NCBI GenBank assembly: GCA_964496475.1
Contig: CAZBZS010000004.1
Span: 11,775 to 75,774 of the forward strand
From: an uncultured Chloroflexota bacterium
GTDB lineage: Bacteria; Chloroflexota; UBA11872; VXNJ01
Length of the DNA stretch: 64,000 nucleotides
Direction: 5' to 3'
Part shown: one piece after another, positions 8,532 to 58,599 of the stretch
Layout: each line of letters opens with the position of its first letter
Numbering within the stretch: position 1 is the stretch's first letter
The notes under the pieces: model-generated
What the model was told of the DNA's origin: nothing
Database searches by the model: none
What the model saw: only the letters and a program-made list of their open reading frames with translations
Translations under genes and position numbers: made by a program

Positions 8532-8621
8532 CCGGAGCGCCGCAAACGAATGGGAATTGTACCGTTCCGGGACGGGGTCCGTCGGGCGGCGATACGGGAC
8601 GGAGTTGGGCGGCTAACGCAA

Positions 8622-8651
8622 CGAGGCCGGTCCGGGAACGGACCGGCCTCG
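8622..8651 (-). terminator. strong stem-loop downstream of groEL
   Basis: Perfect 13-bp stem CGAGGCCGGTCCG / CGGACCGGCCTCG with a 4-nt loop, 22 nt past the groEL stop. The tail is only weakly U-rich (TTGCGTT). Confidence 0.55.
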
Positions 8652-8673
8652 TGAGAGATCGTATTGTCCGGGG

Positions 8674-17516: not shown

Positions 17517-18011
17517 GTGAAGGCAGTGATCATGGCAGGCGGGGAAGGTTCCCGCTTGAGACCGCTCACCGCGAATCGTCCCAAGCCGATGGTGCTGGTG
17601 GCGAATCTGCCGGCGATGGAGCACATTATTCTGCGTTCTGTGGAAACACGGAATTCGTGAGGTCGTGGCCACGGTCTACTACGAAGCCTGGGTCATACAA
17701 GATTACTGCCGTGACGGTCGGTATTTTGACATGCGGCTGCACTATGCGGTGGAGGATAAACCGCTGGGCACGGCGGAGAGCGTGCGCCTAGCCAGGGAAA
17801 TACTGGATGAGACTTTCTTGGTCGTAAGCGGAGACGCAGTCACCAACTTCGAACTTAACCGGGTGGTCGAATTCCACAGAGCTCGGGATGCGGCCGCGAC
17901 TCTGACGCTGTACCGGGTTGAGAATCCGCTGGAGTACGGCGCTGTGGTGACGGACGACGACGGCCGGCTGCTCCGGTTTCAGGAGACACCGACGTGGGGC
18001 GAAGTGCTGAG
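17517..18011 (+). pseudogene. sugar-1-phosphate nucleotidyltransferase (mannose-1-P guanylyltransferase-like), frameshifted and 3'-truncated
   Basis: The GTG at 17517 gives VKAVIMAGGEGSRLRPLTANRPKPMVLVANLPAMEHIIL, then stops. The sequence continues in another frame as KHGIREVVATVYYEAWVIQDY...LRFQETPTWGEVLSD and breaks off where homologues continue. The frameshift is near 17632-17643. Confidence 0.7.
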
Positions 18012-18315
18012 CGACCGCGCCGCAAACGTCCCCCGGGCAGCAAATCGACGGCGGCGTTGCACTATGAGATCGGAGGCGAAGCCCCCCGAGTGGTGGCCTC
18101 CGGCCACGGTTTTATCGCTGAAAAATATCATCGCGCTGGCAAAAGAGCACGGCCTGAAGATTCATGAGGATCCGGACCTGGCACAGGTTCTGGCGGAGCT
18201 CGACCTTGGGTCGGTGATCCCACTGGAGATCTACCAAGTGGTAGCCGAAGTTCTGGCTTATGTCTACCGGGCGAATGCGTCGGCAGACCGGCTACCCGCC
18301 GCGTCTTCAAGGTAA
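17994..18315 (+). pseudogene. FlhB C-terminal-like (EscU/YscU-type) small protein, frameshifted
   Basis: AGGAGA lies 7 nt before the GTG at 17994. Translation ...STAALHYEIGGEAPRVVASGHGFIAE shifts frame at an A5 run (18121-18125) into NIIALAKEHGLKIHEDPDLAQVLAELDLGSVIPLEIYQVVAEVLAYVY. The length is 322 nt, which is 3n+1. Confidence 0.65.
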
Positions 18316-31602: not shown

Positions 31603-32289
31603 ATGGTGGCTGCCCACATGAAGTTTGTCGTCTCGCTGAGACTTCCGGTCACTGGAGAACGATTGACCGAAACCGAGAACTATGTAGCCTGGGATCTTGA
31701 GACGTTGCGTTTGAGTTGGGAGGTTCCCGGTCGCTGGACCAACCCGGCTGGCTTCGGCCTGAGCGTTGCCGTGACTCAGGATCGCATGGGCTCCGTGCAG
31801 ACATGGGTCGAAGGCGAGGCCGCCAAACTCATCGAGTATCTCAACCGCTTCGATACGGTTGTGGGATTCAATTCCCGCCGATTCGATAACAAAGTTCTTG
31901 GCGCGTACGGCGATGTCACGGTGCTCGATATGCATACCGTGGACCTGCTGGAAGACATCTCGGCCGCCTGTGGCCGCCCCAACTGCGTATCACTGGATCG
32001 GCTTGCCGAATGCCTGTTTGGCGAGACCAAACTGCTCGACGATCCCACCGATGCCGTTCGCATGTGGCGCACCGGTCGTCCCGAGGATCGCGAGTACGTG
32101 GTCCGTTATTGCCAACAGGATGTCGACCTCACGTTCCGCGCCTACGAGTTCGGCCGCCGCAATGGATTCGTAATCGTCCCGGCTCCAGACACTTTCTGGA
32201 ACGAGCTGCCGCTGGTCGCCCGGGTACCGGTTGAATGGGGCGACGAAATCGTCCGGCCGCTTGTTCAGCCGGAAGCCCTGGACCTTTAG
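31603..32289 (+). CDS. DEDDy-type 3'-5' exonuclease (RNase H-like, PolB-exo-like)
   Basis: Motifs WDLET (ExoI), GFNSRRFDNKVL (ExoII) and YCQQDVDLT (ExoIII). The start is at ATG 31603 or 31618. Confidence 0.7.
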   Translation: MVAAHMKFVVSLRLPVTGERLTETENYVAWDLETLRLSWEVPGRWTNPAGFGLSVAVTQDRMGSVQTWVEGEAAKLIEYLNRFDTVVGFNSRRFDNKVLGAYGDVTVLDMHTVDLLEDISAACGRPNCVSLDRLAECLFGETKLLDDPTDAVRMWRTGRPEDREYVVRYCQQDVDLTFRAYEFGRRNGFVIVPAPDTFWNELPLVARVPVEWGDEIVRPLVQPEALDL

Positions 32290-32347
32290 TTGCCGTGTCC
32301 CGTGCCATGCATGATGCCGCGGGCGATCCGGCCGGCAGGTCTCACTC

Positions 32348-35300
32348 GTGATCGCCGACGACCGCCCCGGGCTCTCCGCCGGTGTCTCCGGCGCCATCTC
32401 ACCCGACCTCCCACCGAACGCCCCTACACCGGTGGCCACAGCGTCGCACCGACGGAGGCGAGGCGCTTTCCTGACCGGCATCACCCTCGCCGCGATCCTC
32501 CTGCTGGCCCTGGTCCTCCGTCTGATCGGGCTGGATTGGGACAGCGGCAAGCATCTTCACCCTGATGAACGCTTTCTCACGATCGTCGAGACCTCGATTC
32601 GCTGGCCGTCATCCCTGGCCGAGTACTTCGACCCCACTCGCTCGCCTCTAAATCCATTCCTCCGGCCCGACATTTCCTTCTTCGTCTACGGGACGTTTCC
32701 GCTGTTCCTGGTGAAGGCGTTGGGCACCCTCACCCTTTACACAACCTACGACACGATCAATCTGGTTGGTCGTGTGGTCTCGGCCGTGTTCGACGCCAGC
32801 ACTATTCTGATTCTGTTTCTGCTCACCCGGCGGCTGTTCGATCGCCGCGTGGCCCTGCTTGCCGCTCTGTTTGGCGCTCTCAGCGTATTGAGCATTCAGC
32901 TATCCCATTTCTTCGCGGTCGACACGTTTTCCACGTTCTTCGTCACCGCCGCCCTTTACTTCGCCCTTCGCGTGTATCGGGAGCAACGCTGGTATCTGTT
33001 CGCCGGTCTCGGGCTCGTCACCGGCCTGGCGCTTGCCAGCAAGCTCAGCAGCGCCCTGATAGTCCCTTTTATCGTCGCCTACCTGATTGCCCGGTACCTC
33101 CGCGATCGTCGCATCGTCGCGCGCCCGCCCGGGTTGCCGCTTTTGGTCGCCGGGTTGCTGTTGGCGGTCGTAACGGCCGCTTTTATTTTCCGAATAACCC
33201 AGCCCTACGCTTTTGCCGGCGGCAATCTGCTGGATTTTCGCCTGGCTCGCGATTTCTTGGACGCCGTAAATCAGCAGCGCCAAATCCAAGAGGGCACTTA
33301 CGATTGGCCGCCCGGCATCCAATGGGCGGGCACCACCCCGTATCTGTTCCCGCTCAAGAACATCGTCCTCTGGGGACTCGGCCCGGCCCTGGGTTTTGCC
33401 GCACTGGCGGGTCTCGTATTCGCCTCCTGGCGGCTGACCGTTCGGCGTGACTGGCCGCTTTTCATTCCGGTCGTCTGGACCCTGTTGAACTTTGCTTACT
33501 TCGGCGCACTGGTTCTCAAGACCATGCGCTACTACCAGCCCATGTACCCGATGCTCGCGATGCTCGCCGCCTGGGGCCTTTACTACGCTTGGGACCGGCG
33601 ATCGAGATTGCGCCGGCTTCCGGTCCCCGCCTCGACGCTACCACTGGCGTTGTTCGCCATCGTGATCGTGGGGACCGCCCTGTGGGCGACAGCGTTTGTC
33701 AGCATCTACACTCGCCCGGTAACCCGTATCGCCGCCAGCGAATGGATTCACACGTCCATTCCGGCGGGCACGACGATCGCCGTGGAGCACTGGGACGACA
33801 CCCTGCCGCTGGGCCTGCCGGGATTCGGCGGCGCCGAACGCTACAACATGTTGCAGCTACCCCTGTACGACGACGACACCACGGCCAAAAGGGAGCGGGT
33901 GCTCGACATTATCAATCAGACGGAATTCATCGTGCTCAGCAGCAATCGCCTCAGCGGCAGCATCCCCCGCATGCCGGGTCGCTATCCGATGACCATCCGC
34001 TACTACGACGCCCTCTTCTCCGGCGAGCTTGGCTTTGATGAGGTAGCCGACTTCACCAGCTACCCCTCGCTGCTTGGAATTGAGATTTCCGACGATTCCG
34101 CCGAGGAGGCTTTCACTGTTTACGATCATCCGCGGGTGCGCATCTTTCAGAAGGCGGCCGGATTCGACGCAAACACGGTCCGCGCCATTCTGGCCGGCAT
34201 TGACCTCACCGCCGCCGCGCGGATCTTGCCCCGCGACGCCGGAACCCCCGATCTTCTCCTGAGCACGGCCGACAGGGAGCGGGTACAATCCACCGGCTCG
34301 CTTCCCAGGCAGCTTTTCGGCGAGTCGATTTTCGCCCGATACCCGGCGGTCGCCTGGTTCCTGCTGGTGCTGGTGGCCGGTCTCGCCTCGTGGCCGCTGG
34401 TAAGCCTTGCGCTTTCCCGCCTGCCGGATGCCGGTTACTTCGCCGCCCGGCCGTTTGGCTTGCTCCTGCTTGTTTATCCGGCCTGGATGCTGGGGAGCCA
34501 GCGCTGGGTGCCGTTCGGCCGAAGTTCGTTGCTGGCCGGACTGGCGCTCCTGCTGGCCACCGGCATCGCCGTGGGATGGTTCCGGCGACACCGGTTGCTC
34601 CAGACCATCCGGTCGGCCTGGCCGGCTCTGGTCGTGGGCGAGCTTGTCTTCCTGGCCGCCTTCCTCTTCCTGTTAGTGATTCGCATGGCCAATCCCGACC
34701 TCTGGCACACCGTCTTTGGCGGCGAAAAACCCATGGATTTTGCTCATCTCAATGCCATGCTGCGCACGGATTATTTCCCGCCTTACGACCCCTGGTGGGC
34801 CGGCGGTTACATCAATTACTATTATTTCGGCCAGCTGTTCACCGCCGGTCCGTCGCTTGCGTTAGGCATCCAGCCAGCAGTGGCCTACAACCTGGGTCTG
34901 CCGGCGATGTTCGCCGTCACCGCGGCTGCGATCTTTTCGTTCGGCTTCAACATCTGGCGCGGTGTCGGCCGAAAACGCTTCGCGGCCATCGGCGTGGGGC
35001 TGCTGGCCGTCTTCCTCACGCTGTTCCTTGGCAATCTTGATTCTCTGGTACAGCTATTTCAGATCACCGCGCGCCGCGCGCCCGGGGCCGCGACGGGACT
35101 ATCCGTTCTTTCGCAGGTTCCCAGTACGCTTCTCGGCGGAACCTTCAGCGCCAATTTCGACTTCTGGCGCAGCACGCGGGTCATCGAGCAGACCGTCAAC
35201 GAATTTCCCTACTTCACCTTTCTCTACGGTGATCTCCATCCCCATCTGCTCGATCTCGGCTGGACCATCGTGACTCTGGTCGCGGTCGTTGCGCTGGTGC

Positions 35301-36928
35301 TGGCCCGCCCGGTTCCCGGCCTCTTTGCAGCCGGAGCGACGCTTCAATCGCGCGCGCTGGCGTTCGTCCGCGGCGACCACTTGCCGCCGCTGGTGCTGAT
35401 CGCCGTCACGCTCGGTGTCCATCGAGTTACGAACCCATGGGACTTTCCCACCTACCTGCTGCTCACCGTCCTGGCGCTGGTCTATTCGTTGTGGCGTGGA
35501 CATGGGCGATTTGGTTGGAGCTTCCTGGTCGTCCCGGTACTGGCTGCCGGAGGGCTGATGGCGGCCAGCCTGGCGCTCTTCACTCCGTTTCATACCAATT
35601 TCGGCGTCTTCTTCAGCGGCGTGGTTCCGACCCCCGAGACAACTCCACTGAGCTTGTATTTGCTGTTCTTCGGGGTCTTTTTCCTGATATTGCTGAGCTT
35701 CGCCGGGCTCAGTTTCGTTCCTCGACGGGTTCGCGGGTGGTATTCGACCGGCTTCAAAGTCGGCCTCGCCAGCCCGGTCAGGCTAGTGAGATACGTTTCT
35801 CTGGCCGCAGCGCTCGGGCGCTGGCGACGTCTGCCCGCTATCTGGGTATTGATGTTTCCGGCTGTAGCGTTGCTTGTGCTGCTCGCTGCCGCCGCCACCA
35901 GCCAGTCCTGGTCCACTCCGGCGGCGCAGACCGGGTTGATCGTAATCGGCCTGGGGATTCCGATTCTCTGGATAATCGGGGCTGGACGCGTTCCGCCGGT
36001 CCCCTGGCCTCTTCTCATTCTTGGGATTTCTCTATTTCTCCTGGTGATCGCCGACTACCCGTGGTCCACACGCTTATTTCAGCCACTGGCCGTCATCCTG
36101 GCGGTTGCGGCTGCCCTGAAGAATCGCCGTGACCCGATCCGCTTCATCCCGATGGCTCTGCTGGTCGGGGCGCTGTTGTTGACCGCCCTCCCCGAGTGGT
36201 ACGCGCTGGAGGGCGACATCGGCCGGCTGAACACTGTCTTCAAGTCCTACTATCAGGCGTGGGTGATGCTGGCTCTGGCCAGCGCTCTGGTGTTGCCACA
36301 ACTGATTCCCGCCATCCTGCGCCGCTTTGGGGGTTGGTTCAGCGTCGGCGGCTCGTTTTTGCTGGCGACGATCGCCATCTCCATTTTTGGGTCTGCTCTT
36401 TATCCGATCGGGGCGACCCCGGTGAAAATCGACCTCCGCATCGATCACACCGAACCGACTCTGGACGGCACGGCCTACATGGTCGAAGGGGTGATCAACG
36501 ATCGCGGGCGCGAGATCGAGCTCCGCTACGACAAGCAGGCCATCGACTGGATTCTGTCCAACGTGGAAGGCCGCCCGACAATCCTGGAGGCCACGGTGGA
36601 TATTTATCATTGGGGTTCGCGAATCTCCATAAACACCGGCCTGCCCACTGTGCTCGGTTGGGACTGGCACGAAAAACAGCAGCGCTGGCCCTATCGCCAC
36701 GAGGTGGATGCGCGCCGCCGGGATGTCGAGCTTGCCTACAGCACGACGAACGTGACCGAGCTCCTGAATGTGCTCGATCGTTACGGCGTCGATCTCATCT
36801 ACATCGGTGAACTGGAGCGTGCCTACTATCCGGCCAATGGGCTGGCAAAATTTGATGATCTGACCGATCGCGGCCTGGACGTCATCTATGAGAACCGGGA
36901 TGTCCGTATCTACCGGGTATCGTCTTGA
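32348..36928 (+). CDS. 1526-aa polytopic membrane protein: N-terminal PMT_2/ArnT-like GT-C module fused to a DUF2298 (Chlor_Arch_YYY) module
   Basis: HLHPDERFLTIVE (DE loop after TM1). Many TM segments. GGEKPMDFAHLNAMLRTDYFPPYDPWWAGGYINYYYFGQ. The C-terminal soluble domain is ...TGLPTVLGWDWHEKQQRW...YIGELERAYY. Confidence 0.85.
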   Translation: MIADDRPGLSAGVSGAISPDLPPNAPTPVATASHRRRRGAFLTGITLAAILLLALVLRLIGLDWDSGKHLHPDERFLTIVETSIRWPSSLAEYFDPTRSPLNPFLRPDISFFVYGTFPLFLVKALGTLTLYTTYDTINLVGRVVSAVFDASTILILFLLTRRLFDRRVALLAALFGALSVLSIQLSHFFAVDTFSTFFVTAALYFALRVYREQRWYLFAGLGLVTGLALASKLSSALIVPFIVAYLIARYLRDRRIVARPPGLPLLVAGLLLAVVTAAFIFRITQPYAFAGGNLLDFRLARDFLDAVNQQRQIQEGTYDWPPGIQWAGTTPYLFPLKNIVLWGLGPALGFAALAGLVFASWRLTVRRDWPLFIPVVWTLLNFAYFGALVLKTMRYYQPMYPMLAMLAAWGLYYAWDRRSRLRRLPVPASTLPLALFAIVIVGTALWATAFVSIYTRPVTRIAASEWIHTSIPAGTTIAVEHWDDTLPLGLPGFGGAERYNMLQLPLYDDDTTAKRERVLDIINQTEFIVLSSNRLSGSIPRMPGRYPMTIRYYDALFSGELGFDEVADFTSYPSLLGIEISDDSAEEAFTVYDHPRVRIFQKAAGFDANTVRAILAGIDLTAAARILPRDAGTPDLLLSTADRERVQSTGSLPRQLFGESIFARYPAVAWFLLVLVAGLASWPLVSLALSRLPDAGYFAARPFGLLLLVYPAWMLGSQRWVPFGRSSLLAGLALLLATGIAVGWFRRHRLLQTIRSAWPALVVGELVFLAAFLFLLVIRMANPDLWHTVFGGEKPMDFAHLNAMLRTDYFPPYDPWWAGGYINYYYFGQLFTAGPSLALGIQPAVAYNLGLPAMFAVTAAAIFSFGFNIWRGVGRKRFAAIGVGLLAVFLTLFLGNLDSLVQLFQITARRAPGAATGLSVLSQVPSTLLGGTFSANFDFWRSTRVIEQTVNEFPYFTFLYGDLHPHLLDLGWTIVTLVAVVALVLARPVPGLFAAGATLQSRALAFVRGDHLPPLVLIAVTLGVHRVTNPWDFPTYLLLTVLALVYSLWRGHGRFGWSFLVVPVLAAGGLMAASLALFTPFHTNFGVFFSGVVPTPETTPLSLYLLFFGVFFLILLSFAGLSFVPRRVRGWYSTGFKVGLASPVRLVRYVSLAAALGRWRRLPAIWVLMFPAVALLVLLAAAATSQSWSTPAAQTGLIVIGLGIPILWIIGAGRVPPVPWPLLILGISLFLLVIADYPWSTRLFQPLAVILAVAAALKNRRDPIRFIPMALLVGALLLTALPEWYALEGDIGRLNTVFKSYYQAWVMLALASALVLPQLIPAILRRFGGWFSVGGSFLLATIAISIFGSALYPIGATPVKIDLRIDHTEPTLDGTAYMVEGVINDRGREIELRYDKQAIDWILSNVEGRPTILEATVDIYHWGSRISINTGLPTVLGWDWHEKQQRWPYRHEVDARRRDVELAYSTTNVTELLNVLDRYGVDLIYIGELERAYYPANGLAKFDDLTDRGLDVIYENRDVRIYRVSS

Positions 36929-37022
36929 CGGGACGTAAACTGACCGCCGGCCTGCGCTCGCCGCTTTTGACGATCTCGCAGCCGACCGAAAGGATCCAGC
37001 AATAAGCGACTCGCTTCTCTGG

Positions 37023-39209
37023 GTGCTGATCCTGCTCGTCATGACGCTCGTCGGGTTGCCGCTCTCTCACATCCTCTTCCCACGCCTGCCTTCCCGCGGC
37101 TATCTGCTGGCCAAACCGCTGGGTCTGCTGGCGTTTAGCTTCGTGAGCTGGCTGCTGTTGTTCACGGGAGCGTTTGCCAACGGACGCTCTTATCAAATGA
37201 TCTTGCTATTCGTCCTGGTGCTAGCTGCCTTGGTCGCGTACCGTAGCCTTCCCGATCTGGCGGAGGAGCTCCGCGCCCGCCAATGGCAAATCGTCATCGG
37301 CGAAGTCGTGTTTGCGGTCGCGTTTCTGTTGTTCGCGCTTTACCGGGCCCGCAATCCCGACATCGCCGGCACGGAGAAACCGATGGAATTCGCGATGTTG
37401 AGTTCGGTCATGCGCAGCGCCACTTTCCCGCCCATCGATCCTTGGCTCTCAGGTCTTCCGGTCAACTACTACTACTTCGGGTATTCCGTCGGCGGGGCGC
37501 TGGCGAATCTGGCCGGAACCGCGGCGGCCATCGCCTTCAACCTCTTGCTGATAACCGTCTTCGCACTGACCGCACTCGTAACTTTCTCGCTCGGCCACGA
37601 CCTGCTGGCACTGGCCCGCGAGAGGTCAACCGCGATCGAGCGCAACGTCACGGGCGGTCTGGCGGCCGTCTTCGTGCTGCTCGCCGGAAACCTGGGGGGC
37701 TACCGCTTTGTCATCGAACCCGCCTTCCGTAACGAAGACTTCTGGCGCGGAATCGGCTGGAACGCAAGTCGTGTCCTCCAACGCAACAATGAATCCGGGG
37801 AACTTCAGGATTACACGATCAACGAATTTCCGGCTTTTTCGTTTGTGCTTGGCGATCTGCACCCCCACGTAATAGCGCTGCCGTTCACCATGCTGGCGGT
37901 CGCCATCGCTCTAAGCTGGTTGCTTGTCTGGGGTGACAGGGATTCTTCCTTCCGGGAGACGATCCCACTGGCCGTGGTCACGGCGCTGCTGCTCGGCGCT
38001 CTGAATGTCACCAATCCCTGGGACTTTCCCAGCTTCACCGTACTCATCGCCCTAGCCGGGTTGACCGGGCTGTATTTTTTTGGTGACCGCCGGCGCTGGA
38101 CCGATCTCGTTATTCATCTCGCCGCCGCCGTAGGGCTCTCGCTGCTGCTGTACCTTCCCTACCATCTGCACTTCGAACCGTTCATAAGTCAGCTGGGACT
38201 GGTCTCTGTCAGGTCGGCGGTCGGCCCGTTCGTCATCATCTTCGGCTTCTGGATCGTGGCGGCCGTCCTTTTGCTCGCTCACCGGCTGGGGCGCGATTCG
38301 CTCTCCGGCCGCTGGATGGTGCTGGCCGTGGGCGCCGTTGTCGTGGTGCTCTGGTTGAGCAATGTGCCGGCCGGCGTCCTGCTTCTGTGCGCGCTGCTGG
38401 CCGCGGCGATGGCATACCTTGGCGTCCGCCAGTCCGATGGCCAGCCCCGCCGCGCCGCCCTGCCGCTGGTCTTTTTCACCGGATTTGGGCTGGCGGCCGT
38501 GCCGGAACTCGTCTTCGTAGACGACTTCTTCGGGCCGCCCTACGAGCGGATGAACACGGTTTTTAAGATTTACTTCCAGGCCTGGCCGCTGCTGGCGGTG
38601 GCCTCGGCGCCGGCGATATACCTGTTCTTGCGCCGGGTCTGGAGTCGTTTGGGCGAGACCGGCGCGCTCGCCACGGGCGCCACCGCAGTCGTGGCCATCC
38701 TGTTTTTCGTAGCCATCATCTACCCGTTTGCCGCGGGCCGCGCCCGGATCGGGGGCAGTCAGCCCGCCACGCTTGACGGCTTGGCCTTCGCCCGTCGCAG
38801 CTGGCCCGCCGAGGTCCGGGCCGCCGAATGGCTCCGCGCCGAGGCCCCAGCCGGCTCCGTGGTCCTGGAAGCTGCCGGCAACGCCTACACCGACTACGCC
38901 CGCGTCTCCGCCTGGACCGGCATACCGACGGTGATCGGCTGGGACCAGCACGAGGCGCTCTGGCGGGGGGGGCGCCAGGAAGTAGATCCACGGGTGATTG
39001 ATGTCGACGCCATTTACCAAGGCCGGGGCCGCGGCGACACTCTGGATCTGCTCCACAAATACGATGTCCGTTACGTCTTCGTTGGCCGCCTCGAACGCGA
39101 AAAATACGGACTTGACGTCGCCACTCGTTTCACCGGATATCCGCTGCTGTTTGAAATCCGGGGCGAAGTGTCAATTTTCGGGGTGCCGCTCAGCACCCCC
39201 GGAGGTTAG
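37023..39209 (+). CDS. DUF2298 (Chlor_Arch_YYY, TIGR03662-like) membrane protein
   Basis: 728 aa. GTEKPMEFAMLSSVMRSATFPPIDPWLSGLPVNYYYFGY. The C-terminal domain TGIPTVIGWDQHEALWRG...FVGRLEREKY parallels the upstream paralogue. Confidence 0.85.
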   Translation: MLILLVMTLVGLPLSHILFPRLPSRGYLLAKPLGLLAFSFVSWLLLFTGAFANGRSYQMILLFVLVLAALVAYRSLPDLAEELRARQWQIVIGEVVFAVAFLLFALYRARNPDIAGTEKPMEFAMLSSVMRSATFPPIDPWLSGLPVNYYYFGYSVGGALANLAGTAAAIAFNLLLITVFALTALVTFSLGHDLLALARERSTAIERNVTGGLAAVFVLLAGNLGGYRFVIEPAFRNEDFWRGIGWNASRVLQRNNESGELQDYTINEFPAFSFVLGDLHPHVIALPFTMLAVAIALSWLLVWGDRDSSFRETIPLAVVTALLLGALNVTNPWDFPSFTVLIALAGLTGLYFFGDRRRWTDLVIHLAAAVGLSLLLYLPYHLHFEPFISQLGLVSVRSAVGPFVIIFGFWIVAAVLLLAHRLGRDSLSGRWMVLAVGAVVVVLWLSNVPAGVLLLCALLAAAMAYLGVRQSDGQPRRAALPLVFFTGFGLAAVPELVFVDDFFGPPYERMNTVFKIYFQAWPLLAVASAPAIYLFLRRVWSRLGETGALATGATAVVAILFFVAIIYPFAAGRARIGGSQPATLDGLAFARRSWPAEVRAAEWLRAEAPAGSVVLEAAGNAYTDYARVSAWTGIPTVIGWDQHEALWRGGRQEVDPRVIDVDAIYQGRGRGDTLDLLHKYDVRYVFVGRLEREKYGLDVATRFTGYPLLFEIRGEVSIFGVPLSTPGG

Positions 39210-39212
39210 GCA

Positions 39213-40961
39213 GTGGGTGCTGTTGATCCCGTCCTGAAATGGAGTTTCTGGCGGCAGATCGTAAGGCTCCCGCTGCCGGGCGGACGGGGGCTGGAACTGG
39301 CCCGCTGGGAGATGCTGCTATACGCCGCCATCATTGTGGCGGTCGTGGCCACCCGGTTCCTGGCACTCGATGTCCGCGCCTACCACCATGACGAAAGCAT
39401 CCACGCCAAGACCTCCTGGGACATCATGAACGGTGTGGCCTACCGCTACAACCCCGTGTATCACGGTCCTTTCCAGTACTTCGCGACCGCCGCCGTATTC
39501 AAAGTCTTCCGCGCCGGTGACTTTGCCGGCCGCATCATGCCCGCCATCTTCGGCGCGGCCACCATCTTCGCCATTCCCTGGCTTTACCGGAATCACCTGG
39601 GCCGGCACGGCACCTGGATCGTCATGGTCGCCCTGACCCTGTCCACCGGGTTCATGTACTTCTCGCGCTTCGCCCGTAACGATATCTACGTCGCGTTCTG
39701 GACCGTGCTCTTGTTCGGCGCGTTACTCCGTTACATCGATCGGCCGCAGCGGCGCTGGGTGGTTCTGGCCGCGGGCTCGCTCGGGCTCTTCTTCGTCACC
39801 AAGGAGAACGCGTACATCGTCGGATTTATCTTCGTCAGCTTCGTCGTATTGCTGGCGCTGTGGACGTTCCGCGGTCGACGCGGCCGGGATGCCGCCGACG
39901 AGACGGTCGGTCGGTTTCGAACCGCGTTCCAGGTGCTGGGACGGGATGTTGATGGGTTGGCCTACGCGCTTTTGCTGTTCCTGGGCGTGATTTTCATATT
40001 CATGACCTCTTTCTTCACTTACCTGCCCGGATTTCGAGAGGGCATCATCACATCCTTTACCGTCTGGGCGGACATCAACGAATCGCAGAGGGTGAATCAG
40101 CCATGGTTCTTCTACTTTATATTCACCGGCGTTTACGAGGCTTTCGCCGCGCTCCTGGGTCTGGCCGGCATCGTGCAGGCCATCCGCCGGCCGAAGCTAT
40201 TGCCGGTGCTCTTGGTGTACTGGACGGTGCTGAGCTTCTTCATCTACTCGATCGCCGGCGAAAAGGCGGCCTGGCTCTCGCTGCATCCCACCCTGCCGCT
40301 TACGCTGCTGGCCTCGTGGTATGTGGGGGATAGATTCGAGCGAATCCGGTCCTTCGGCGGACGGGCTGCGGTGGCTCTCATCGCCATCGTCCTACTCGGC
40401 TGGACCGCCGGAAATTCCGTAAGGGTAACCTTCGTTTACCGAGATGTACCCAACGATTTTGTCATCTACACGCAGACCTCCCGGGACGTTCTGGAGACCC
40501 TGGAGATTATCGAGGAGGCCGGCCGCCGCACCGGCGAGGGATCCGGCATCCCGATCTTCCTGCATGCCGAGACCCACTGGCCTTATGCCTGGTATCTGCG
40601 CGACTACACCGCCATCTACTACGCCCCGAACATGACCGAGCTTCCGACGCAGAAGATCGTGCTAGCCGGCGACGCTAGCGCTCGCGAGTTCGGCTATCTC
40701 TTCGTCGATCATGTAGGTATCGAAATGAAACTCCGCGAGTGGTTTCCCGAGCAGGTTTACAGGGATTGGGATTGGAGTTCTCTGGGCAGCGCCCTCCAGA
40801 AGGACAATCTTTTGAAACTCTATCGCTTCTATTTCTTCAGGGAGCCGCCCGAGAGCCTGGGATCGTCTAATTACCTCCTTTACATCCACAAGGATCTCTT
40901 GCAGGCCGGACCGCTGGGGCGGTTTACCCTGCTGCCGCCGTCGGCGCCCGCCGGCCCCTGA
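39213..40961 (+). CDS. TIGR03663 / Agl23-like GT-C family membrane protein
   Basis: 582 aa. RAYHHDESIHAKTSW...YNPVYHGPFQYF carries the invariant DE and HGP of the family. GGAGG lies 7 nt before the GTG, and the gap to the upstream stop is 3 nt. Confidence 0.85.
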   Translation: MGAVDPVLKWSFWRQIVRLPLPGGRGLELARWEMLLYAAIIVAVVATRFLALDVRAYHHDESIHAKTSWDIMNGVAYRYNPVYHGPFQYFATAAVFKVFRAGDFAGRIMPAIFGAATIFAIPWLYRNHLGRHGTWIVMVALTLSTGFMYFSRFARNDIYVAFWTVLLFGALLRYIDRPQRRWVVLAAGSLGLFFVTKENAYIVGFIFVSFVVLLALWTFRGRRGRDAADETVGRFRTAFQVLGRDVDGLAYALLLFLGVIFIFMTSFFTYLPGFREGIITSFTVWADINESQRVNQPWFFYFIFTGVYEAFAALLGLAGIVQAIRRPKLLPVLLVYWTVLSFFIYSIAGEKAAWLSLHPTLPLTLLASWYVGDRFERIRSFGGRAAVALIAIVLLGWTAGNSVRVTFVYRDVPNDFVIYTQTSRDVLETLEIIEEAGRRTGEGSGIPIFLHAETHWPYAWYLRDYTAIYYAPNMTELPTQKIVLAGDASAREFGYLFVDHVGIEMKLREWFPEQVYRDWDWSSLGSALQKDNLLKLYRFYFFREPPESLGSSNYLLYIHKDLLQAGPLGRFTLLPPSAPAGP

Positions 40962-40964
40962 GAA

Positions 40965-41978
40965 TTGAGCCGCCGAGCGCTACTCAGGTCGGCGATTGGG
41001 TTGCCGTTGAGCGCCGTATTTCTCTGGCTGGCGCTTCGCAACGTCGATCTTGGAACGGCCGTCGCGCGGATCGCCGAATCCGATCTTGCCTTCGTTTTCG
41101 CGGCCGCGGTCGTATTGATGTTCGGGATATGGCTCCGGGCCGTACGCTGGCGAATCTTGCTGGCTCCGCTGGGACGAACCACGGTGATGCAGTCGTTCTC
41201 AGCGCTCTCGATCGGCTACCTCGCCAACAACGCCTTACCCGCGCGACTGGGGGAGATCGTCCGGGTCGTCGTCCTCCACCGCGATACCGGCATCCCCCGT
41301 TCCGGCGCGGTTGGCACCATCGTCGCCGAGCGCCTTTTCGATGTTCTCACGCTACTTCTTATGCTTGGCGTCGCCGCCCTGGTGTCCGGCTGGGAGAATC
41401 CTTGGGCCGGCCTGCTGGGTCTGCTCGGGGTAGCCGCCGCACTCGGTCTCGTCGTGGTATATCTGGTTGCCGCCCGCTCCGTCATCCTGCCGACGCGACT
41501 CTCTCGCCCGTTCGTTCCGGTCGTCGGCCGCCTGCCCCGCCGGCTCGTCGAGTTGGCCGGTGGCTTCTTGGCCGGGTTTGCCAACGTGGCTTCCGCCAGG
41601 ACCATCGTGCAAATTTTTTCGCTTTCGCTGCTCTCCTGGACGGTTGAGGCTACGGTCTACTATCTGATGCTGCTCGCCTTGGACATCGGCGCCGGCGGAT
41701 ATTGGATGGGAATGCTGGTGTCGTCGCTCTCCAACCTGGCCGGGGTGATCCCGGCCGGGCCGGCGAACCTGGGACCGTTCGAATATTTCGCCAGGGAGAC
41801 TCTGCTTGGGTTTGCGCTATCCGCCGAGACCGCCGTTGCCTTTGCGGTCGCCACTCACCTGCTCCTCATCTTCCCGCCGAGCGTCATCGGAGGGCTTTTG
41901 CTCATTCGCGCGGGACTTCGTTGGCGTGCCGGCGGCGCCGAGAATGTTGATCGCGACGGACCGCCTGAGCCGGGGTAA
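40965..41978 (+). CDS. lysylphosphatidylglycerol-synthase-TM-region / UPF0104 'flippase-like' membrane protein
   Basis: 337 aa with about 8 TM segments. The N-terminus is LWLALRNVDL...WLRAVRWRILLAPLG. The gap to the upstream stop is 3 nt. Confidence 0.8.
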   Translation: MSRRALLRSAIGLPLSAVFLWLALRNVDLGTAVARIAESDLAFVFAAAVVLMFGIWLRAVRWRILLAPLGRTTVMQSFSALSIGYLANNALPARLGEIVRVVVLHRDTGIPRSGAVGTIVAERLFDVLTLLLMLGVAALVSGWENPWAGLLGLLGVAAALGLVVVYLVAARSVILPTRLSRPFVPVVGRLPRRLVELAGGFLAGFANVASARTIVQIFSLSLLSWTVEATVYYLMLLALDIGAGGYWMGMLVSSLSNLAGVIPAGPANLGPFEYFARETLLGFALSAETAVAFAVATHLLLIFPPSVIGGLLLIRAGLRWRAGGAENVDRDGPPEPG

Positions 41979-41990
41979 CCTGATCCGATC

Positions 41991-43322
41991 ATGAGCATCC
42001 AATCCGATCCCAGCGTCGCCATCATCGGGGCGGGCATAACGGGCCTTACCGCCGCCTTTGAGCTGTCTCGCCGCGGTTTTGTCGTCGATGTCTACGAGGC
42101 GGCCTCCACCATCGGCGGCGAGCTGGGTGTTATCGAGGTGAACGGCGAACCCGTCGAACGCTACTACCATCACCTTTTCCGGGGAGATTCCGAAATCATC
42201 GGCCTGCTCGGTCAACTGGGTATCGACCATCTGCTGGAATGGCGCTCGCCGCCGATGGGGTTCTATTCCGACGGCCGTCTCTTCAATTTCACCACTCCGA
42301 TCGATCTGCTCCGGTTCAAGCCCCTGCCGCTCCTCGATCGCCTGCGGATGGCGTTCTCCACCGTGTACCTCCAGCGAATTAGAAACTACACTCGTTTTGA
42401 GGATGTCCGCGCCTCGGATTACCTTCCCCGAATCACCGGGCGCCAGGCCTTCGAGACCATCTGGCGACCGTTGTTGATGGCCAAATTCGGGGAGCAATGG
42501 GGCGAAATTTCCATGGCCTGGTTCTGGGGCAGGGTGCACGTGCGTTTCCAGTCCCGTAGCCGGTCCGGGCTGCGGGAAGAGCTCGGTTACATTCGGGGAA
42601 GCTTCGCCCGGATCAGTCAGGCCTTAGCGGACCACGTGAGCGATCACGGAGGGCGCATTTTTCCGAAAATGCCGGTGGAGGCGATCGTGCAGCACGAGGG
42701 CAGTGCGACCGGCATTCGGGTCGCTGGCGAGGAACGTGCCTACAATCACGTTATCGGAACAGTCGGCCTGCCCATCCTGCGACGGCTGCTCGGCCCGGGC
42801 CAGATCAGCGATAGCTACGGCGCCATCGATTATCGCGCCGCCCTGGTGATGTTGATGAGGCTCGACCGGCCGTCAGGGGATCGATACTGGACTAACATCG
42901 GCGACCCGGAGCCGCCATTCGCCGGACTGATCGAGCACACGAATTTCATCCCACCGGAACGTTACGGCGGCGCTCACCTGCTCTACGTCAGCAACTACGT
43001 CCGACCCGACGATCGATTGTTCAAGCTCACCGACGACGAGCTTTTTGATGAGTATGTGCCGCACATCGCGCGGATCCTGCCTGGATTCAATCCCGAGGCC
43101 GTGATCGAGCGCTGGGTCTCTCGCGACCCGGTCGCTCAGCCGGTGATTACGGCTGGGTATCAGCGACGCATCCCGCCGTTCCGCAGCGAGGTGCCGAGGT
43201 TTTACGTATGCAACACGTCACAGATATATCCGGAAGATCGCGGTACGAATTACAACGTGCGAATCGCCCGCCAGGTAGTCCGTTGTATCTGTGAGGATAC
43301 CGGCGTGGATTTCGACGGGTAG
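41991..43322 (+). CDS. FAD/NAD(P)-dependent oxidoreductase (amine-oxidase / CrtI-HemY-like fold)
   Basis: 443 aa. VAIIGAGITGLTAAFELSRRGFVVDVYEA dinucleotide-binding motif. The gap to the upstream gene is 12 nt. Confidence 0.8.
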   Translation: MSIQSDPSVAIIGAGITGLTAAFELSRRGFVVDVYEAASTIGGELGVIEVNGEPVERYYHHLFRGDSEIIGLLGQLGIDHLLEWRSPPMGFYSDGRLFNFTTPIDLLRFKPLPLLDRLRMAFSTVYLQRIRNYTRFEDVRASDYLPRITGRQAFETIWRPLLMAKFGEQWGEISMAWFWGRVHVRFQSRSRSGLREELGYIRGSFARISQALADHVSDHGGRIFPKMPVEAIVQHEGSATGIRVAGEERAYNHVIGTVGLPILRRLLGPGQISDSYGAIDYRAALVMLMRLDRPSGDRYWTNIGDPEPPFAGLIEHTNFIPPERYGGAHLLYVSNYVRPDDRLFKLTDDELFDEYVPHIARILPGFNPEAVIERWVSRDPVAQPVITAGYQRRIPPFRSEVPRFYVCNTSQIYPEDRGTNYNVRIARQVVRCICEDTGVDFDG

Positions 43323-43334
43323 TCCGCGGGACGC

Positions 43335-44057
43335 CTAGATCAGCAGCAGGCGCTCGTCCTCGCTGATCCCGCTGGTGGCCAGCGTCGGCACCCGGTCGCT
43401 GCGGTCCACTTGCGCGCAGAAATCCAGGTCCGCCTCCAGGCCGATCGCCATCAGCCGCCGCCCGCTGTCCGAGATTCGTAACATCGCCGGGAGGTCTTGG
43501 TACGCCTGCGCCAGCGCGACGGCGGCCAGTGCCGAGTCGTCCGCCGCCCCACCCATCTCCACGAGCCGACTCGCGAATAAGCCGGCGCAAACGGCGTCGT
43601 CCAGCGCGAACCGTCGGTGGCTTCCCGCACAGACGATCTTCACCGTTCCCGGATCGGTTGCCGCCGCCCGCTCGGCGGCCGCCGTCAGATTCAGGAAACT
43701 CGCCATCGAGACATGTTTCGCCGCCGCCGCCATTCGCGCCGCCCGCGGCCCGTTGACGGTGCCGAAGACGATCTCCCGCTCGCCGAAATCCATTTCGGCG
43801 ACCTCGCGGGGAGAATTGCCCATTTCAAAGCGGGGTAGAGGTAGGCCGTCCAGCTCTCCGCCCGCCCAGGCGTGCGGGCGTTCACGGTCGCGATACTCCA
43901 GGGCCTCGCGGGCGCTGTCAGCCAGGTAGATAGGCGGATTACCATTCGCCGCGATAACGGCCAGCGTCGCGCCCGAGCGGACCGCGTCGACCACAATGGC
44001 GGCATCTTCAACGCCGTAACCCATGTCTTCTGGAAGAAAGGCCACGGCAACTCGCAT
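43335..44057 (-). CDS. 2-phosphosulfolactate phosphatase (ComB) family protein
   Basis: 240 aa. The N-terminus AIVVDAVRSGATLAVIAANG resembles the ComB VIDVLRAT motif. The assignment is moderate. Confidence 0.65.
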   Translation of the reverse strand: MRVAVAFLPEDMGYGVEDAAIVVDAVRSGATLAVIAANGNPPIYLADSAREALEYRDRERPHAWAGGELDGLPLPRFEMGNSPREVAEMDFGEREIVFGTVNGPRAARMAAAAKHVSMASFLNLTAAAERAAATDPGTVKIVCAGSHRRFALDDAVCAGLFASRLVEMGGAADDSALAAVALAQAYQDLPAMLRISDSGRRLMAIGLEADLDFCAQVDRSDRVPTLATSGISEDERLLLI

Positions 44058-56034: not shown

Positions 56035-58599
56035 ATGGGAACAATGATCTCCCCTCTGGTCGTGATCTGGGCACGGATTCCGCCTCGCGCCCGCGTTCTG
56101 ACCGGTTACGCTTTCCCGCTCTTGTTCCTCTACCGACGGCTTCTTTTCGAGGGCCAAACCTGGCTGGATTTCGACTTTCTCATTGATAATCGCGTCCGTT
56201 TCGAGATTTTGCAGGCCGGTCTGGTGGATAACCAGCTGCCGCTCTGGACCGACAGGTACCTGGGCGGCTTTCCCATTGCCTTTTCCGAATTCGGCTGGTT
56301 TTACCCTCCATCCTGGCTGTTCTTGCGCGTATTCCCGATGCCGCTCGCCTACCACGCCGAGGCCGCCCTGGGACTCCTCCTCGCCGCCGTCAGCACCTAT
56401 CTACTGGGTCGTGCTTGGGGGCTCAGTCGTTTGTCCGCCTACATCGGAGGCTATCTCTACGGCTTTGCTCCCTTTGTATTCGCGACTTCCCTTTTCATCA
56501 ACTTCGCCGACATCTTCTGGGTGCTCCCAGCGGCCATCCTCGCCATCGAGCGCGTATCTCAAGGGCTCCTCCGCTATTTATTCCTGCTAGCCCTCGCCGC
56601 CGCCGCCGCCATCCTCGCCGGGCATCCCCATCTCGCTGTCATCCTGGCCTTTGCCGCTGCGATTTATGCGGTATTTCGCTTGACTTGTACCTTTCGCGAT
56701 CGGGGCCCTAGCGCGGCGGCAAGGTTACTCGGCCTGCTGGTGTTCGCCTGTGGCATAGGCCTGATGCTGGGGGCCGTGCGGCTGCTGCCGACGCTCGCTC
56801 TGACCGGTGTGTCCACCCGGGCTGGCGGACTCGACCCAGCCACTGCGGCCGGCGGCTCCCTGCATCCGTTCCAGTTGCTCTTGGGCTATCTCTACCCCGC
56901 CTTCGATCTTCCCCTGGTCGCCGGCGGAATTCTGCGCGCGGAGCCGCTGTCCTATGCCGGTCTGCTAGCGCTGCCTCTGGCGTTCGGCGCGGTCATCTGG
57001 CGGGCCCGCGAAAGGCCCGTGGTCTTCCTTTTAGCCCTGCTGATCGTTAGCTGGTTACTCGCCTTCGGCGACCTGACGCCCGTCTACGGCCTCTTGCGCA
57101 GTCTGCCCGTGTTTGAGCTCTTCCGGGAGCCCGGCCGTTATCTACTGCCGGGCATTCTGGCGTTAGCCCTGCTGGCGGCTTTCGGACTTGATGCTCTGCG
57201 CGACCCGGCCGGTCGCCATGCAGTCTTCGCACGTCGAGTTGGAATCATTTTCGCCATCTATTCAGCAATTATGCTTGCCTTACTCATCGCCGGAACGGTG
57301 CTGCTGAAGAGCGGCGGCTCCATCGAGGAATTCGCCAACCGGGGAATCGACCGCTTCCTGGTCGGCGGTCGGAACGCCTACTTCAACGAGTCCGGCTGGC
57401 TGGGAGCGTTCGCGCTGGCGCGTGGTCGCTTGGAAGTCGCCTTCACTCTGGCCAGCTGGACTCCGGTGCTGGCCATCCTCACGACCGCCGCCGGGGCCGC
57501 AGTCCTGTGGCGTTACGGGATTGGACACCTGACGGCGCGAACACTGGTCGCCGCTCTTGCGGCCCTGCTCGTTTTCGATCTAACCCTCTCGATCGGCCAC
57601 GGTATCCCCACCCTTCCACCGAAGCTCGCCGAATCGACTCCGGCGGTCGCCGCCACCGTCGGCGAGCTGAGCGACAGTCGGGTGTTTTCCTATCGATCCC
57701 TGGCGGACAAGTCGGAACTGGGACTCGGCTCCGGTCGCGATCTGCCCCCGACGGAGCGCCGTCTGCTGGAATATCTCTTCGCCCGCGAACTGCTCACGCC
57801 AAATCTGCCCGGCCGCTACGGTCTGCGTTCGCTGGACGGCTACGAGAACCTCATGAGCCATCGGCAGGCCGAGGTACTGGCTTACCTCGGTAGCGAGCGC
57901 GCCGCCGCACCGGGATTCGCCCGCGACGATTCCCTTTCGGAGGGTGCTAAGGCCGATCTGTTGCGTCGGCGATTGCCGGTCCTCGGGGCTCTCGGCGTCA
58001 GCACGATCGTTGCCGGGACCGATCTGAGTGCGGCTCTCGGGCGCGCCGCCTCCTCCCACCGCGTGGACATCCCCTTCGATTGGGAACGACCCATCGTTTG
58101 GGTCTACGAATTACCCCCCGATCGGGGCGATTTCTACCTGACCGCCAATTGGCTTCGGGACGACCCGGCCATGTCCACCAGGCATGCGCTGGATCGTATC
58201 GTCTCCGATCCGGCATCGACCCTGTTGGACGGAGATCCAGGCTTCGCGCCGAACATCGACTCCGGAGCCACCATCCAAATCAAACGTCGTGCCCCGGGCG
58301 ACTGGAGCTTCACGGTCACCGGCGATCGGCGAACCGTGCTCGTCCTCAATCAGGCCGCGCTTCCCGGCTGGCGTGTGAGTCTCAACGGAGAATCAGCCCG
58401 GCTCCTGACGGCCAATCGCTTCGCGCTTGCCGTGGTCGTCCCGCCGGGACGGGTCGGGGTAGAGTTCACCTACGTGCCGCCACGATTTGGAACTGGCGTC
58501 GCCATCAGCCTGGCCGGGTTGGCGATAGGGCTGATGATGGGCCTGGCGGCGCTGATCGGGCCGCGGCTCCGCCTCCGCCGACCACCGGAGCACTACTGA
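56035..58599 (+). CDS. YfhO-family GT-C-type membrane protein
   Basis: 854 aa and highly polytopic. The N-terminal region ...LVDNQLPLWTDRYLGGFPIAFSEFGWFYPPSW resembles the YfhO signature. Large C-terminal extracytoplasmic domain. Confidence 0.78.
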   Translation: MGTMISPLVVIWARIPPRARVLTGYAFPLLFLYRRLLFEGQTWLDFDFLIDNRVRFEILQAGLVDNQLPLWTDRYLGGFPIAFSEFGWFYPPSWLFLRVFPMPLAYHAEAALGLLLAAVSTYLLGRAWGLSRLSAYIGGYLYGFAPFVFATSLFINFADIFWVLPAAILAIERVSQGLLRYLFLLALAAAAAILAGHPHLAVILAFAAAIYAVFRLTCTFRDRGPSAAARLLGLLVFACGIGLMLGAVRLLPTLALTGVSTRAGGLDPATAAGGSLHPFQLLLGYLYPAFDLPLVAGGILRAEPLSYAGLLALPLAFGAVIWRARERPVVFLLALLIVSWLLAFGDLTPVYGLLRSLPVFELFREPGRYLLPGILALALLAAFGLDALRDPAGRHAVFARRVGIIFAIYSAIMLALLIAGTVLLKSGGSIEEFANRGIDRFLVGGRNAYFNESGWLGAFALARGRLEVAFTLASWTPVLAILTTAAGAAVLWRYGIGHLTARTLVAALAALLVFDLTLSIGHGIPTLPPKLAESTPAVAATVGELSDSRVFSYRSLADKSELGLGSGRDLPPTERRLLEYLFARELLTPNLPGRYGLRSLDGYENLMSHRQAEVLAYLGSERAAAPGFARDDSLSEGAKADLLRRRLPVLGALGVSTIVAGTDLSAALGRAASSHRVDIPFDWERPIVWVYELPPDRGDFYLTANWLRDDPAMSTRHALDRIVSDPASTLLDGDPGFAPNIDSGATIQIKRRAPGDWSFTVTGDRRTVLVLNQAALPGWRVSLNGESARLLTANRFALAVVVPPGRVGVEFTYVPPRFGTGVAISLAGLAIGLMMGLAALIGPRLRLRRPPEHY

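Follow-up and report, generated by a model that had tools for sequence, protein, structure and literature searches.

What does a Chloroflexota bacterium do with five consecutive genes that encode three large membrane proteins, a flippase-like protein and a flavoprotein? These genes, which we call A to E, lie in a 64,000-nt stretch of DNA (hereafter the window) from an uncultured bacterium of the lineage Chloroflexota; UBA11872; VXNJ01 (assembly GCA_964496475.1, contig CAZBZS010000004.1, positions 11,775 to 75,774 of the forward strand). A first-pass annotation, made from the sequence alone, had described them as an "archaeal-style" module of lipid-linked glycosylation. We suggest that the products of the operon probably form an extracytoplasmic glycosylation machine with several components, of the polyprenyl-phosphate-sugar/glycosyltransferase-C (GT-C) type. 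Its conserved core, DUF2298 (TIGR03662) together with TIGR03663, occurs across many bacterial phyla.

A bounded operon of five genes

Every open reading frame (ORF), gap and motif listed in the first-pass annotation was recovered in place, as was the Shine-Dalgarno-coupled GTG at 39213 (Table 1). The gaps from A through E measure 94, 3, 3 and 12 nt, and the GGAGG of gene C stands just upstream of the TAG stop of gene B (39207-39209); gene C is translationally coupled to gene B. All five proteins score above curated hidden Markov model (HMM) cut-offs of NCBIfam and Pfam, and the family assignments made earlier held: A and B belong to TIGR03662, C to TIGR03663, D to LPG_synthase_TM/TIGR00374 and E to Amino_oxidase/NAD_binding_8. 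The five genes are a real operon.

This operon is a bounded unit, since its flanks are unrelated housekeeping genes: YjgF-like and CheX-like genes upstream and, on the opposite strand downstream, ComB-like and ThyX genes. An ORF on the + strand at about 31657-32289 was considered as a sixth operon gene and rejected; it is conserved only in the closest relative. A promoter and terminator scan of the locus gave counts no higher than those of shuffled controls and was uninformative.

Table 1. Genes, domains and signals discussed in the text, in window coordinates (GT2, glycosyltransferase family 2).
Feature	Position	Strand	Details	Basis
Gene A	32348-36928	+	1526 aa, GTG start	ORF call
Gene A, predicted N-terminal PMT_2-like GT-C membrane domain	32348-33757	+	residues ~39-460	
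Gene A, middle soluble domain	33758-34327	+	residues ~470-660	
Gene A, C-terminal DUF2298/TIGR03662 unit	34328-36928	+	residues 667-1526, including its own C-terminal soluble domain	
Gene B	37023-39209	+	728 aa, GTG start	ORF call
Shine-Dalgarno GGAGG of gene C	39201-39205	+	7 nt before the GTG at 39213	
Gene C	39213-40961	+	582 aa, GTG start	ORF call
Gene D	40965-41978	+	337 aa, TTG start	ORF call
Gene E	41991-43322	+	443 aa, ATG start	ORF call
Small soluble GT2, outside the operon	16688-17371	-	227 aa	Glycos_transf_2, 97 bits

Gene C: transferase or flippase?

Sequence searches of A, B and C against the PDB returned nothing meaningful. With no relative of known structure detectable by sequence, a comparison of folds was needed. 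AlphaFold2 (AF2) models of B and C, searched against the PDB with Foldseek, supported the earlier guess that DUF2298 and TIGR03663 proteins are of GT-C type.

Gene C matches TIGR03663 over nearly the whole profile (300.2 bits against a cut-off of 126.25; positions 4-432 of 435) and also matches PMT_2, where the scores of gene C and of the N-terminal domain of gene A are low (37-61 bits). Its model (predicted local distance difference test, pLDDT, 85; predicted TM-score, pTM, 0.86) gave 23 PDB matches at E<=1e-3, all 23 of them GT-C enzymes, including ALG12 (TM 0.56/0.66), ArnT, AglB, STT3, PglB, Pmt4, ALG9, Emb and AftB/AftD. In GT-C enzymes the catalytic loop follows a transmembrane helix, and it is there that A, B and C have their conserved acidic and histidine residues. 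Gene C carries the motifs YHHDESIHA...YHGPF, with HHDE in its first external loop, and homologues down to 30% identity share 50 invariant positions. These include H58-H59-D60-E61 right after the first transmembrane helix, H84-G-P, S151-R-F-x-R155-x-D157 and T196-K-E. Helix order and the positive-inside rule would place the invariant loop residues of both B and C on the side of the C-terminal domain, that is, outside the cell. The fold and the conserved residues predict that gene C is a transferase.

The family has nonetheless been linked to flipping: NCBIfam names TIGR03663 "flippase activity-associated protein Agl23". The first-pass annotation credited haloarchaeal Agl23 with genetic data only. 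This protein, the founding named member of the family, is from Haloarcula hispanica, and biochemical data now exist too: after purification it translocates M5GN2-PP-Dol in proteoliposomes, and it rescues a yeast rft1Δ mutant (PMC11182771). Gene C might accordingly be a flippase or scramblase of a lipid-linked sugar, with each DUF2298 unit as its transferase, so that A and the B-C pair would be two such couples and D would act separately. The one-to-one pairing of PMT-like units with DUF2298, fused in gene A and in an Acidobacteriota protein described below and adjacent in B-C, fits that arrangement. It is the main rival to the reading that we favor, but we regard it as unlikely. Gene C has a full GT-C fold, and invariance on the scale of its HHDE loop and its SRF.R.D and TKE motifs is expected of catalytic and phosphate-binding sites and exceeds what a scramblase would appear to need. 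Gene D, a second flippase-like protein, would be redundant, and the Agl23 gene of Halogeometricum likewise adjoins a GtrA-family flippase candidate. The extensive invariant polar residues and the presence of D argue against a pure-flippase role, although transferase and flippase activities are not mutually exclusive. The DE, HGP, SRF.R.D and TKE motifs of gene C are common to the Halogeometricum protein annotated as Agl23, with which it shares only about 28% identity, over the N-terminal third.

Gene B and the DUF2298 family

Gene B matches TIGR03662 at 543 bits (cut-off 300.25) and Pfam DUF2298 at 357.8 bits (cut-off 27.8). The YYY motif that names the family is present in both A and B as NYYYFG, within GLPVNYYYFGY in gene B, where Y149 and Y150 are invariant and Y151 is kept in 28 of 30 homologues. 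Further invariant residues are P112, E118, M121, D139-P-W, E268-F-P, D278-L-H280-P-H282 and G639-W640, while an acidic residue (D or E) occupies position 113 in all but four of the 30 homologues (26 of 30). Among the motifs so formed are P[DE]..TEKPM[DE], DPW and DLHPH. The AF2 model, built on the homologue alignment, is confident (pLDDT 89, pTM 0.92). All 14 of its Foldseek matches at E<=1e-3 are GT-C enzymes that depend on polyprenyl phosphates (AglB, DPY19, AftA, STT3, ArnT). On this modelled fold, DUF2298 is an uncharacterised GT-C family. In the literature searched we found neither a functional study of DUF2298/TIGR03662 nor a GT-C assignment of DUF2298.

One way to read these matches is that DUF2298 is a new oligosaccharyltransferase (OST) that moves a ready-made glycan en bloc from a lipid carrier to protein; the adding or trimming of single sugars would fall to gene C and to the first half of A. 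By Foldseek E-value, AglB and OST complexes that contain STT3 rank first for gene B, the C-terminal domain of which resembles the globular domain at the C-terminus of AglB (3vu0, probability 1.00), and the tetratricopeptide repeat (TPR) or NHL domains of some family members could bind protein substrates. An STT3-type assignment was rejected for want of any STT3 match in Pfam or NCBIfam and of a WWDYG motif, in place of which gene B has G639-W640-x-x-H643-E644, with no WWD and with a variable residue 641 at the D position. These two absences weaken an OST-like en-bloc role. In addition, the top TM-score (0.45/0.53) belongs to AftA, a single-sugar arabinofuranosyltransferase, and no genes for lipid-linked-oligosaccharide assembly were found near the operon. 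We therefore think an OST improbable.

DUF2298 is a large family, with about 7,000 clusters at 50% identity in a library of 1.84 billion proteins; some of these are proteins of 2,000-2,700 aa in which two or three copies of DUF2298 precede TPR repeats. Three proteins in the representative library (P0365, P0380 and P0364) are 1,700-2,700 aa long and contain two or three DUF2298 units each. In two of the three, TPR repeats form the C-terminus, reminiscent of TMTC-type protein O-mannosyltransferases.

Gene A: a natural fusion

Judged by the PMT_2 and DUF2298 HMM matches on which its GT-C assignment rests, gene A is a natural fusion of two GT-C-type units. The PMT_2 match (61.5 bits) covers residues 140-274, and the second unit, a complete DUF2298, scores 513.5 bits against TIGR03662 and 331.5 bits against Pfam DUF2298, above the same cut-offs as gene B, to which it is 32-33% identical. 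The N-terminal domain reaches only 29.5 bits against TIGR03663, below the 126.25 cut-off, and we consequently class it as a PMT_2-like relative, not a member of that family; its identity to gene C is 28% over 123 aa. Both signature motifs are present: HLHPDERF, with HPDE just past the first transmembrane helix, and GGYINYYYFGQ in the DUF2298 part. The true start codon is uncertain, as the first ~62 residues are not conserved in relatives.

Between the two units lies a soluble domain with no similarity to the C-terminal domain of gene C; like the soluble domains of B and C, it has no Pfam match. Among fused proteins from Chloroflexota and Acidobacteriota it is 38-74% identical, and in the Acidobacteriota ones, which are more distant, no other part of A is conserved as well. 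We infer that it is the extracytoplasmic domain of the first GT-C unit.

A core shared by many bacterial phyla

A single scan of 185,579 species genomes, anchored on gene C, recovered 573 relatives, and the best 80 loci were analysed by mapping the five window proteins onto them; counts out of 70 refer to the loci with enough flanking sequence. All 80 loci are bacterial and come from Chloroflexota, Acidobacteriota/Thermoanaerobaculia, Binatia, Methylomirabilis, Spirochaetia, Desulfobacterales, Actinomycetota, Goldiibacteriota and others. The closest relatives of gene C are from Chloroflexota, at 72% and 54-56% identity. In 47 of 70 loci the TIGR03663 gene is preceded, on its own strand, by a DUF2298 gene, which is its immediate neighbor in 28. 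Fusions of the gene A type (PMT-like, soluble domain and DUF2298; 1270-1842 aa) occur in 23 loci of several phyla, 22 of which retain HPDE. It is this pairing of DUF2298 and TIGR03663 that is conserved across phyla.

In one Acidobacteriota metagenome-assembled genome (MAG), the pairing takes an extreme form: a single ORF of 2533 aa (L047; CAWJKC010000007.1, 5042-12643) joins a PMT-like unit, DUF2298, TIGR03663 and an NHL β-propeller.

These results change the picture drawn at first pass. The co-occurrence of TIGR03662 and TIGR03663 was borne out, the two being adjacent in many loci and even fused. A restriction mainly to Chloroflexi and Archaea was not, given the breadth of phyla among the best 80 loci and a DUF2298 gene on a Pseudobutyrivibrio (Firmicutes) plasmid, where it lies in a polysaccharide locus with O-antigen-ligase-family and GT2 genes. 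The label "archaeal-style" found no support either: the close relatives are all bacterial, and archaeal synteny, sampled in two haloarchaeal replicons of a plasmid collection, showed no DUF2298-Agl23 pairing. In the Halarchaeum replicon the DUF2298 gene stands alone. As for gene order, the DUF2298-TIGR03663 core proved widespread, but only close relatives within Chloroflexota have all five genes in exactly this order.

The other haloarchaeal replicon, pHBOR02 of Halogeometricum borinquense (L086, 8917-11288), has an annotated Agl23 gene that overlaps a GtrA-family gene by 4 nt and adjoins two GH18 chitinase-family genes, with no DUF2298 nearby.

Genes D and E

D and E are Chloroflexota add-ons to the core. 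Gene D was found in 13 of 67 loci and gene E in 16 of 67, nearly all of them from Chloroflexota. The full A-B-C-D-E order occurs in four complete Chloroflexota genomes and one truncated contig, and more distant members of the phylum have B-C-E or B-C-D-E. Searched from the E end, homologues of gene E at 41-49% identity lie in DUF2298-PMT_2-(LPG_TM)-FAD operons in four of the five contexts inspected. E thus genuinely belongs to the module as it occurs in Chloroflexota, the operon being repeated in the contexts of its homologues.

Gene D matches the entire LPG_synthase_TM profile (PF03706; 151.5 bits, cut-off 33.4; positions 2-302 of 302) and TIGR00374 (70 bits, cut-off 43.2). The first-pass annotation had called it an 8-TM protein of the LPG-synthase type; the type is upheld by the full profile match, whereas the eight transmembrane segments were not recovered, a crude hydropathy scan giving five strong ones. 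D was rejected as an MprF because it has no aminoacyl-phosphatidylglycerol synthase domain, its 337 aa comprising the transmembrane domain only. It has no match to HpnL models at E<=0.01.

Gene E belongs to the superfamily of amine-oxidase/phytoene-desaturase flavoproteins and matches NF005560/PRK07233 at 472.7 bits (cut-off 252; positions 2-431 of 435). Its GAGITG motif spans residues 13-18, with G13, G15 and G18 invariant. E is probably cytoplasmic, since it has no transmembrane segment and a Rossmann motif from residue 8; it also has no signal peptide. Assignments to HpnE, CrtI and protoporphyrinogen oxidase (PPOX) were rejected, all three scores lying below the respective thresholds (HpnE 88.5 against 283, over the full length; crtI_fam 33 against 238; proto_IX_ox 39 against 98). 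The best full-length match of known structure is plant phytoene desaturase (5mog, 72 bits).

The family of gene E can also be aligned by hhalign, over its full length, with a eukaryote-type family like UDP-galactopyranose mutase (UGM) (probability 98%, 18% identity). In this alignment a histidine of its YHHLF loop meets an invariant histidine of the UGM-like family, which we take to be the UGM histidine loop. Gene E is still not classed as a UGM, as it lacks substrate-binding residues conserved there: A-G replaces the Y-R of F-Y-R, with its invariant arginine, and the C-terminal RGRFGxWxYExGN segment is absent. No UGM appears among the top 60 PDB matches of its profile.

Could the module instead modify or export a membrane lipid, for example an isoprenoid processed by E, moved by D and decorated by the GT-C proteins? 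HpnE is the best-scoring characterised family for gene E, and both HpnE and phytoene desaturase act on long isoprenoid chains. D shares a superfamily with the flippase domain of MprF, to which HpnL presumably also belongs. ArnT-type GT-C enzymes glycosylate lipids, and ArnT is among the top structural matches of gene C. We consider such a role improbable, as most of the loci with the GT-C core have neither D nor E. E also falls far below the HpnE cut-off, D lacks a match to HpnL at E<=0.01, and neither hopanoid nor carotenoid genes were found in the window.

That the five genes are mere neighbors with no shared function is highly improbable: the promoter and terminator scan decides neither way, but chance adjacency is excluded by the gaps of 3, 3 and 12 nt, by the translational coupling of C to B with its Shine-Dalgarno sequence just before the preceding stop, by a gene order kept in genomes at only 41-56% identity and by the natural gene fusions.

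Candidate genes for donor supply

Outside the operon, the small GT2 listed in Table 1 lies 15 kb away and is Dpm1/ArnC-like. Its best partial NCBIfam matches (PgfS, AglJ, ArnC, Dol-P-hexose transferase and PpgS) are all below cut-off, and the family match is generic. We tentatively regard it as a candidate polyprenyl-phosphate sugar synthase for the operon. It is 24-38% identical to the GT2 proteins encoded beside TIGR03663 genes (27-34% over the longer alignments).

Accessory genes were sought by clustering all ORFs of the 80 loci. A GT2 of about 250 aa occurs in 26 of them, with top matches to PgfS, ArnC, AglJ, Dol-P-hexose transferase and PpgS, again all under cut-offs. Ten loci from Acidobacteriota, Actinomycetota and Desulfobacterales encode a eukaryote-type UGM, similar over its full length to that of T. 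cruzi (4dsg; E=3e-99), and in nine of the ten the UGM gene directly abuts the GT2 gene, beside TIGR03663/DUF2298 genes. In Acidobacteriota, the small GT2 and UGM occupy the slot of D and E. The pairing of GT2 with UGM would therefore supply a lipid-linked, possibly furanose, donor to the GT-C proteins of those loci, and it suggests a lipid-linked galactofuranose donor in the UGM-bearing bacteria. The loci in question are L048 (UGM at 7810-9216), L044, L047, L049, L053, L058, L064, L068, L075 and L080.

Proposed mechanism and its significance

In the glycosylation machine that we favor, a sugar would be loaded onto polyprenyl phosphate at the cytoplasmic face by a synthase encoded outside the operon. 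Gene E, as a cytoplasmic flavoprotein, would modify the lipid carrier, the lipid-linked sugar or the nucleotide sugar. The lipid-linked donor would then cross the membrane by way of the flippase-like gene D, possibly also of the Agl23-like gene C. Four GT-C units (both halves of A, PMT_2-like and DUF2298, followed by B and C), which probably form one complex, would transfer the sugar or sugars outside the cell. The acceptor would be a glycan of the cell surface or a protein, either secreted or of the S-layer; by analogy with TMTC, the TPR and NHL domains of relatives hint, faintly, at protein acceptors. The family memberships, the modelled GT-C folds of B and C, their conserved loop residues, the adjacency and fusion of the GT-C types and the linkage of D and E to the module come from the analysis itself; we infer which lipid-linked donor is used, which protein flips it and in which direction, that a complex forms, what gene E does and what the acceptor is.

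Several points weigh against this scheme. The transfer activity, donor and acceptor of the operon proteins are predictions from sequence and models, and the Foldseek TM-scores of gene B are moderate (0.31-0.53). The only tested member of TIGR03663 was reported as a flippase, not as a transferase. LPG_synthase_TM domains are known to flip aminoacyl-phospholipids (MprF), not polyprenyl sugars, and the nearest characterised relatives of gene E act on isoprenoid chains or tetrapyrroles, not on sugars. Finally, neither the operon nor the surrounding ±10 kb in its close Chloroflexota relatives was found to encode a polyprenyl-phosphate sugar synthase.

A bolder extension, which we offer as a possibility only, is that an unrecognised heteromeric GT-C machine of DUF2298 and TIGR03663 proteins, sometimes fused into chains that exceed 2,500 aa, is responsible in many bacterial phyla for a surface glycoconjugate not yet described. 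PRK07233 would then be a new donor-preparing enzyme, and "Agl23" proteins would be transferases for which flipping is secondary. If this were true, PRK07233 would be a candidate for the long-sought prokaryotic polyprenol α-reductase, giving bacteria a dolichol-like carrier, or for an oxidoreductase or mutase of lipid-linked sugars. A 2024 review (PMC10821996) describes the α-reductase for dolichol in archaea as still unidentified.

As the first-pass annotation had supposed, no characterised orthologous cluster or product was found in the literature searched. GT-C enzymes build major surface structures, among them N-glycans, O-mannans, arabinan and modified lipid A. Our models place DUF2298, with its thousands of clusters, in this superfamily, and adjacency and fusion tie it to the Agl23 family. 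The operon thus offers a compact, testable system for the function of DUF2298 and for the flippase-versus-transferase ambiguity of Agl23 proteins. It also bears on a surface glycoconjugate of Chloroflexota, Acidobacteriota and their relatives, and on the action of PRK07233 on lipid-linked donors. Such a system would not shock a glycobiologist, but it is clean, widely conserved and entirely uncharacterised.

Other features of the window

The ComB-family (2-phosphosulfolactate phosphatase) gene at 43335-44057 (- strand) converges on the end of the operon, and the same convergent neighbor is retained in 11 Chloroflexota loci and on one contig of an "Actinobacteria" MAG, whether for reasons of function or of mere neighborhood. 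Some 13 kb downstream of the operon, an ORF of 854 aa (56035-58599, + strand) has as its only family match the last ~70 residues of the YfhO profile and no NCBIfam match; it may be another large membrane glycosyltransferase-like protein. The ORF at 17665-18315 (+ strand) is odd in that part of a sugar-1-phosphate nucleotidyltransferase (profile positions 53-165) is followed by a C-terminal domain like that of FlhB; a fusion, a frameshift or an error in calling the ORF may explain it. A tyrosine recombinase of the phage-integrase family with an N-terminal SAM-like domain (14876-15832, + strand), probably XerC/D-like, lies among housekeeping genes.

In composition, AT skew over the operon (32001-42000) is strongly negative, from -0.18 to -0.33, where the 2-kb windows on either side have values of about 0 to -0.12; we attribute this to a sense strand rich in T because of its many codons for hydrophobic residues. 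The cumulative GC skew of the whole window peaks near 30-32 kb and has its minimum near 60 kb.

Comparison with known systems

The scheme of a synthase, a flippase and a GT-C enzyme, with auxiliary sugar-modifying enzymes, is known from O-antigen glucosylation of the Gtr type, from ArnC/ArnT, from the glycosylation of teichoic acids in Gram-positive bacteria and from pentofuranose systems (Kelly et al., 2024; PMC11127046). The proposed machine would resemble these three-component systems in placing GT-C proteins outside the membrane, in having a polyprenyl-phosphate monosaccharide flipped by a dedicated protein and in its optional auxiliary enzymes. Related loci contain a putative GT2 synthase, and in one haloarchaeon Agl23 adjoins a GtrA-family gene. 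Where these systems have a single GT-C unit, the operon has four, including two of the unstudied DUF2298 family. Its flippase candidate is an LPG_synthase_TM protein and not a GtrA, MATE or SMR protein, so that the analogy is functional only. Its auxiliary enzyme is an amine-oxidase-type flavoprotein, and the synthase is not in the operon.

Gene C shares its HMM family, TIGR03663, with Haloarcula hispanica Agl23. Unlike that protein, for which flipping is the reported activity, gene C is bacterial and a predicted transferase. It also differs from the one Halogeometricum Agl23 locus inspected in being coupled to a DUF2298 gene.

A further parallel is the mycobacterial arabinan locus, which comprises the GtrA-like Rv3789, the flavoenzyme DprE1, DprE2, AftA and EmbC/A/B, and in which an enzyme using flavin adenine dinucleotide (FAD) makes the lipid-linked donor. 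There, as here, several very large GT-C enzymes are accompanied by an FAD enzyme and by a small protein of flippase-like type. AftA has the best TM-score for DUF2298, and Emb, AftB and AftD are among the matches of gene C. The parts are nevertheless analogous, not homologous: gene D is not a GtrA protein, the operon has no phosphoribosyl pyrophosphate (PRPP)-dependent synthase, and the likeness to the mycobacterial GT-C enzymes exists at the level of fold only (10-16% identity). DprE1 is of the vanillyl-alcohol oxidase (VAO) type, in contrast to the amine-oxidase/phytoene desaturase (PDS) superfamily of gene E.

The N-terminal domain of A and gene C also recall the PMT and TMTC families of protein O-mannosyltransferases (PMTs), in that both match PMT_2 and carry a DE motif in the first external loop. 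TMTC carries TPR repeats, and relatives of the operon proteins have C-terminal TPR or β-propeller domains. Unlike PMTs, the operon proteins have no MIR domain and score low (37-61 bits), and Pmt4 ranks only mid-way among the structural matches of gene C. Gene E, for its part, shares a flavoprotein superfamily with UGM, the genes of which hold the equivalent accessory position in Acidobacteriota loci, but unlike UGM, HpnE and phytoene desaturase it belongs to an uncharacterised family of its own, PRK07233.

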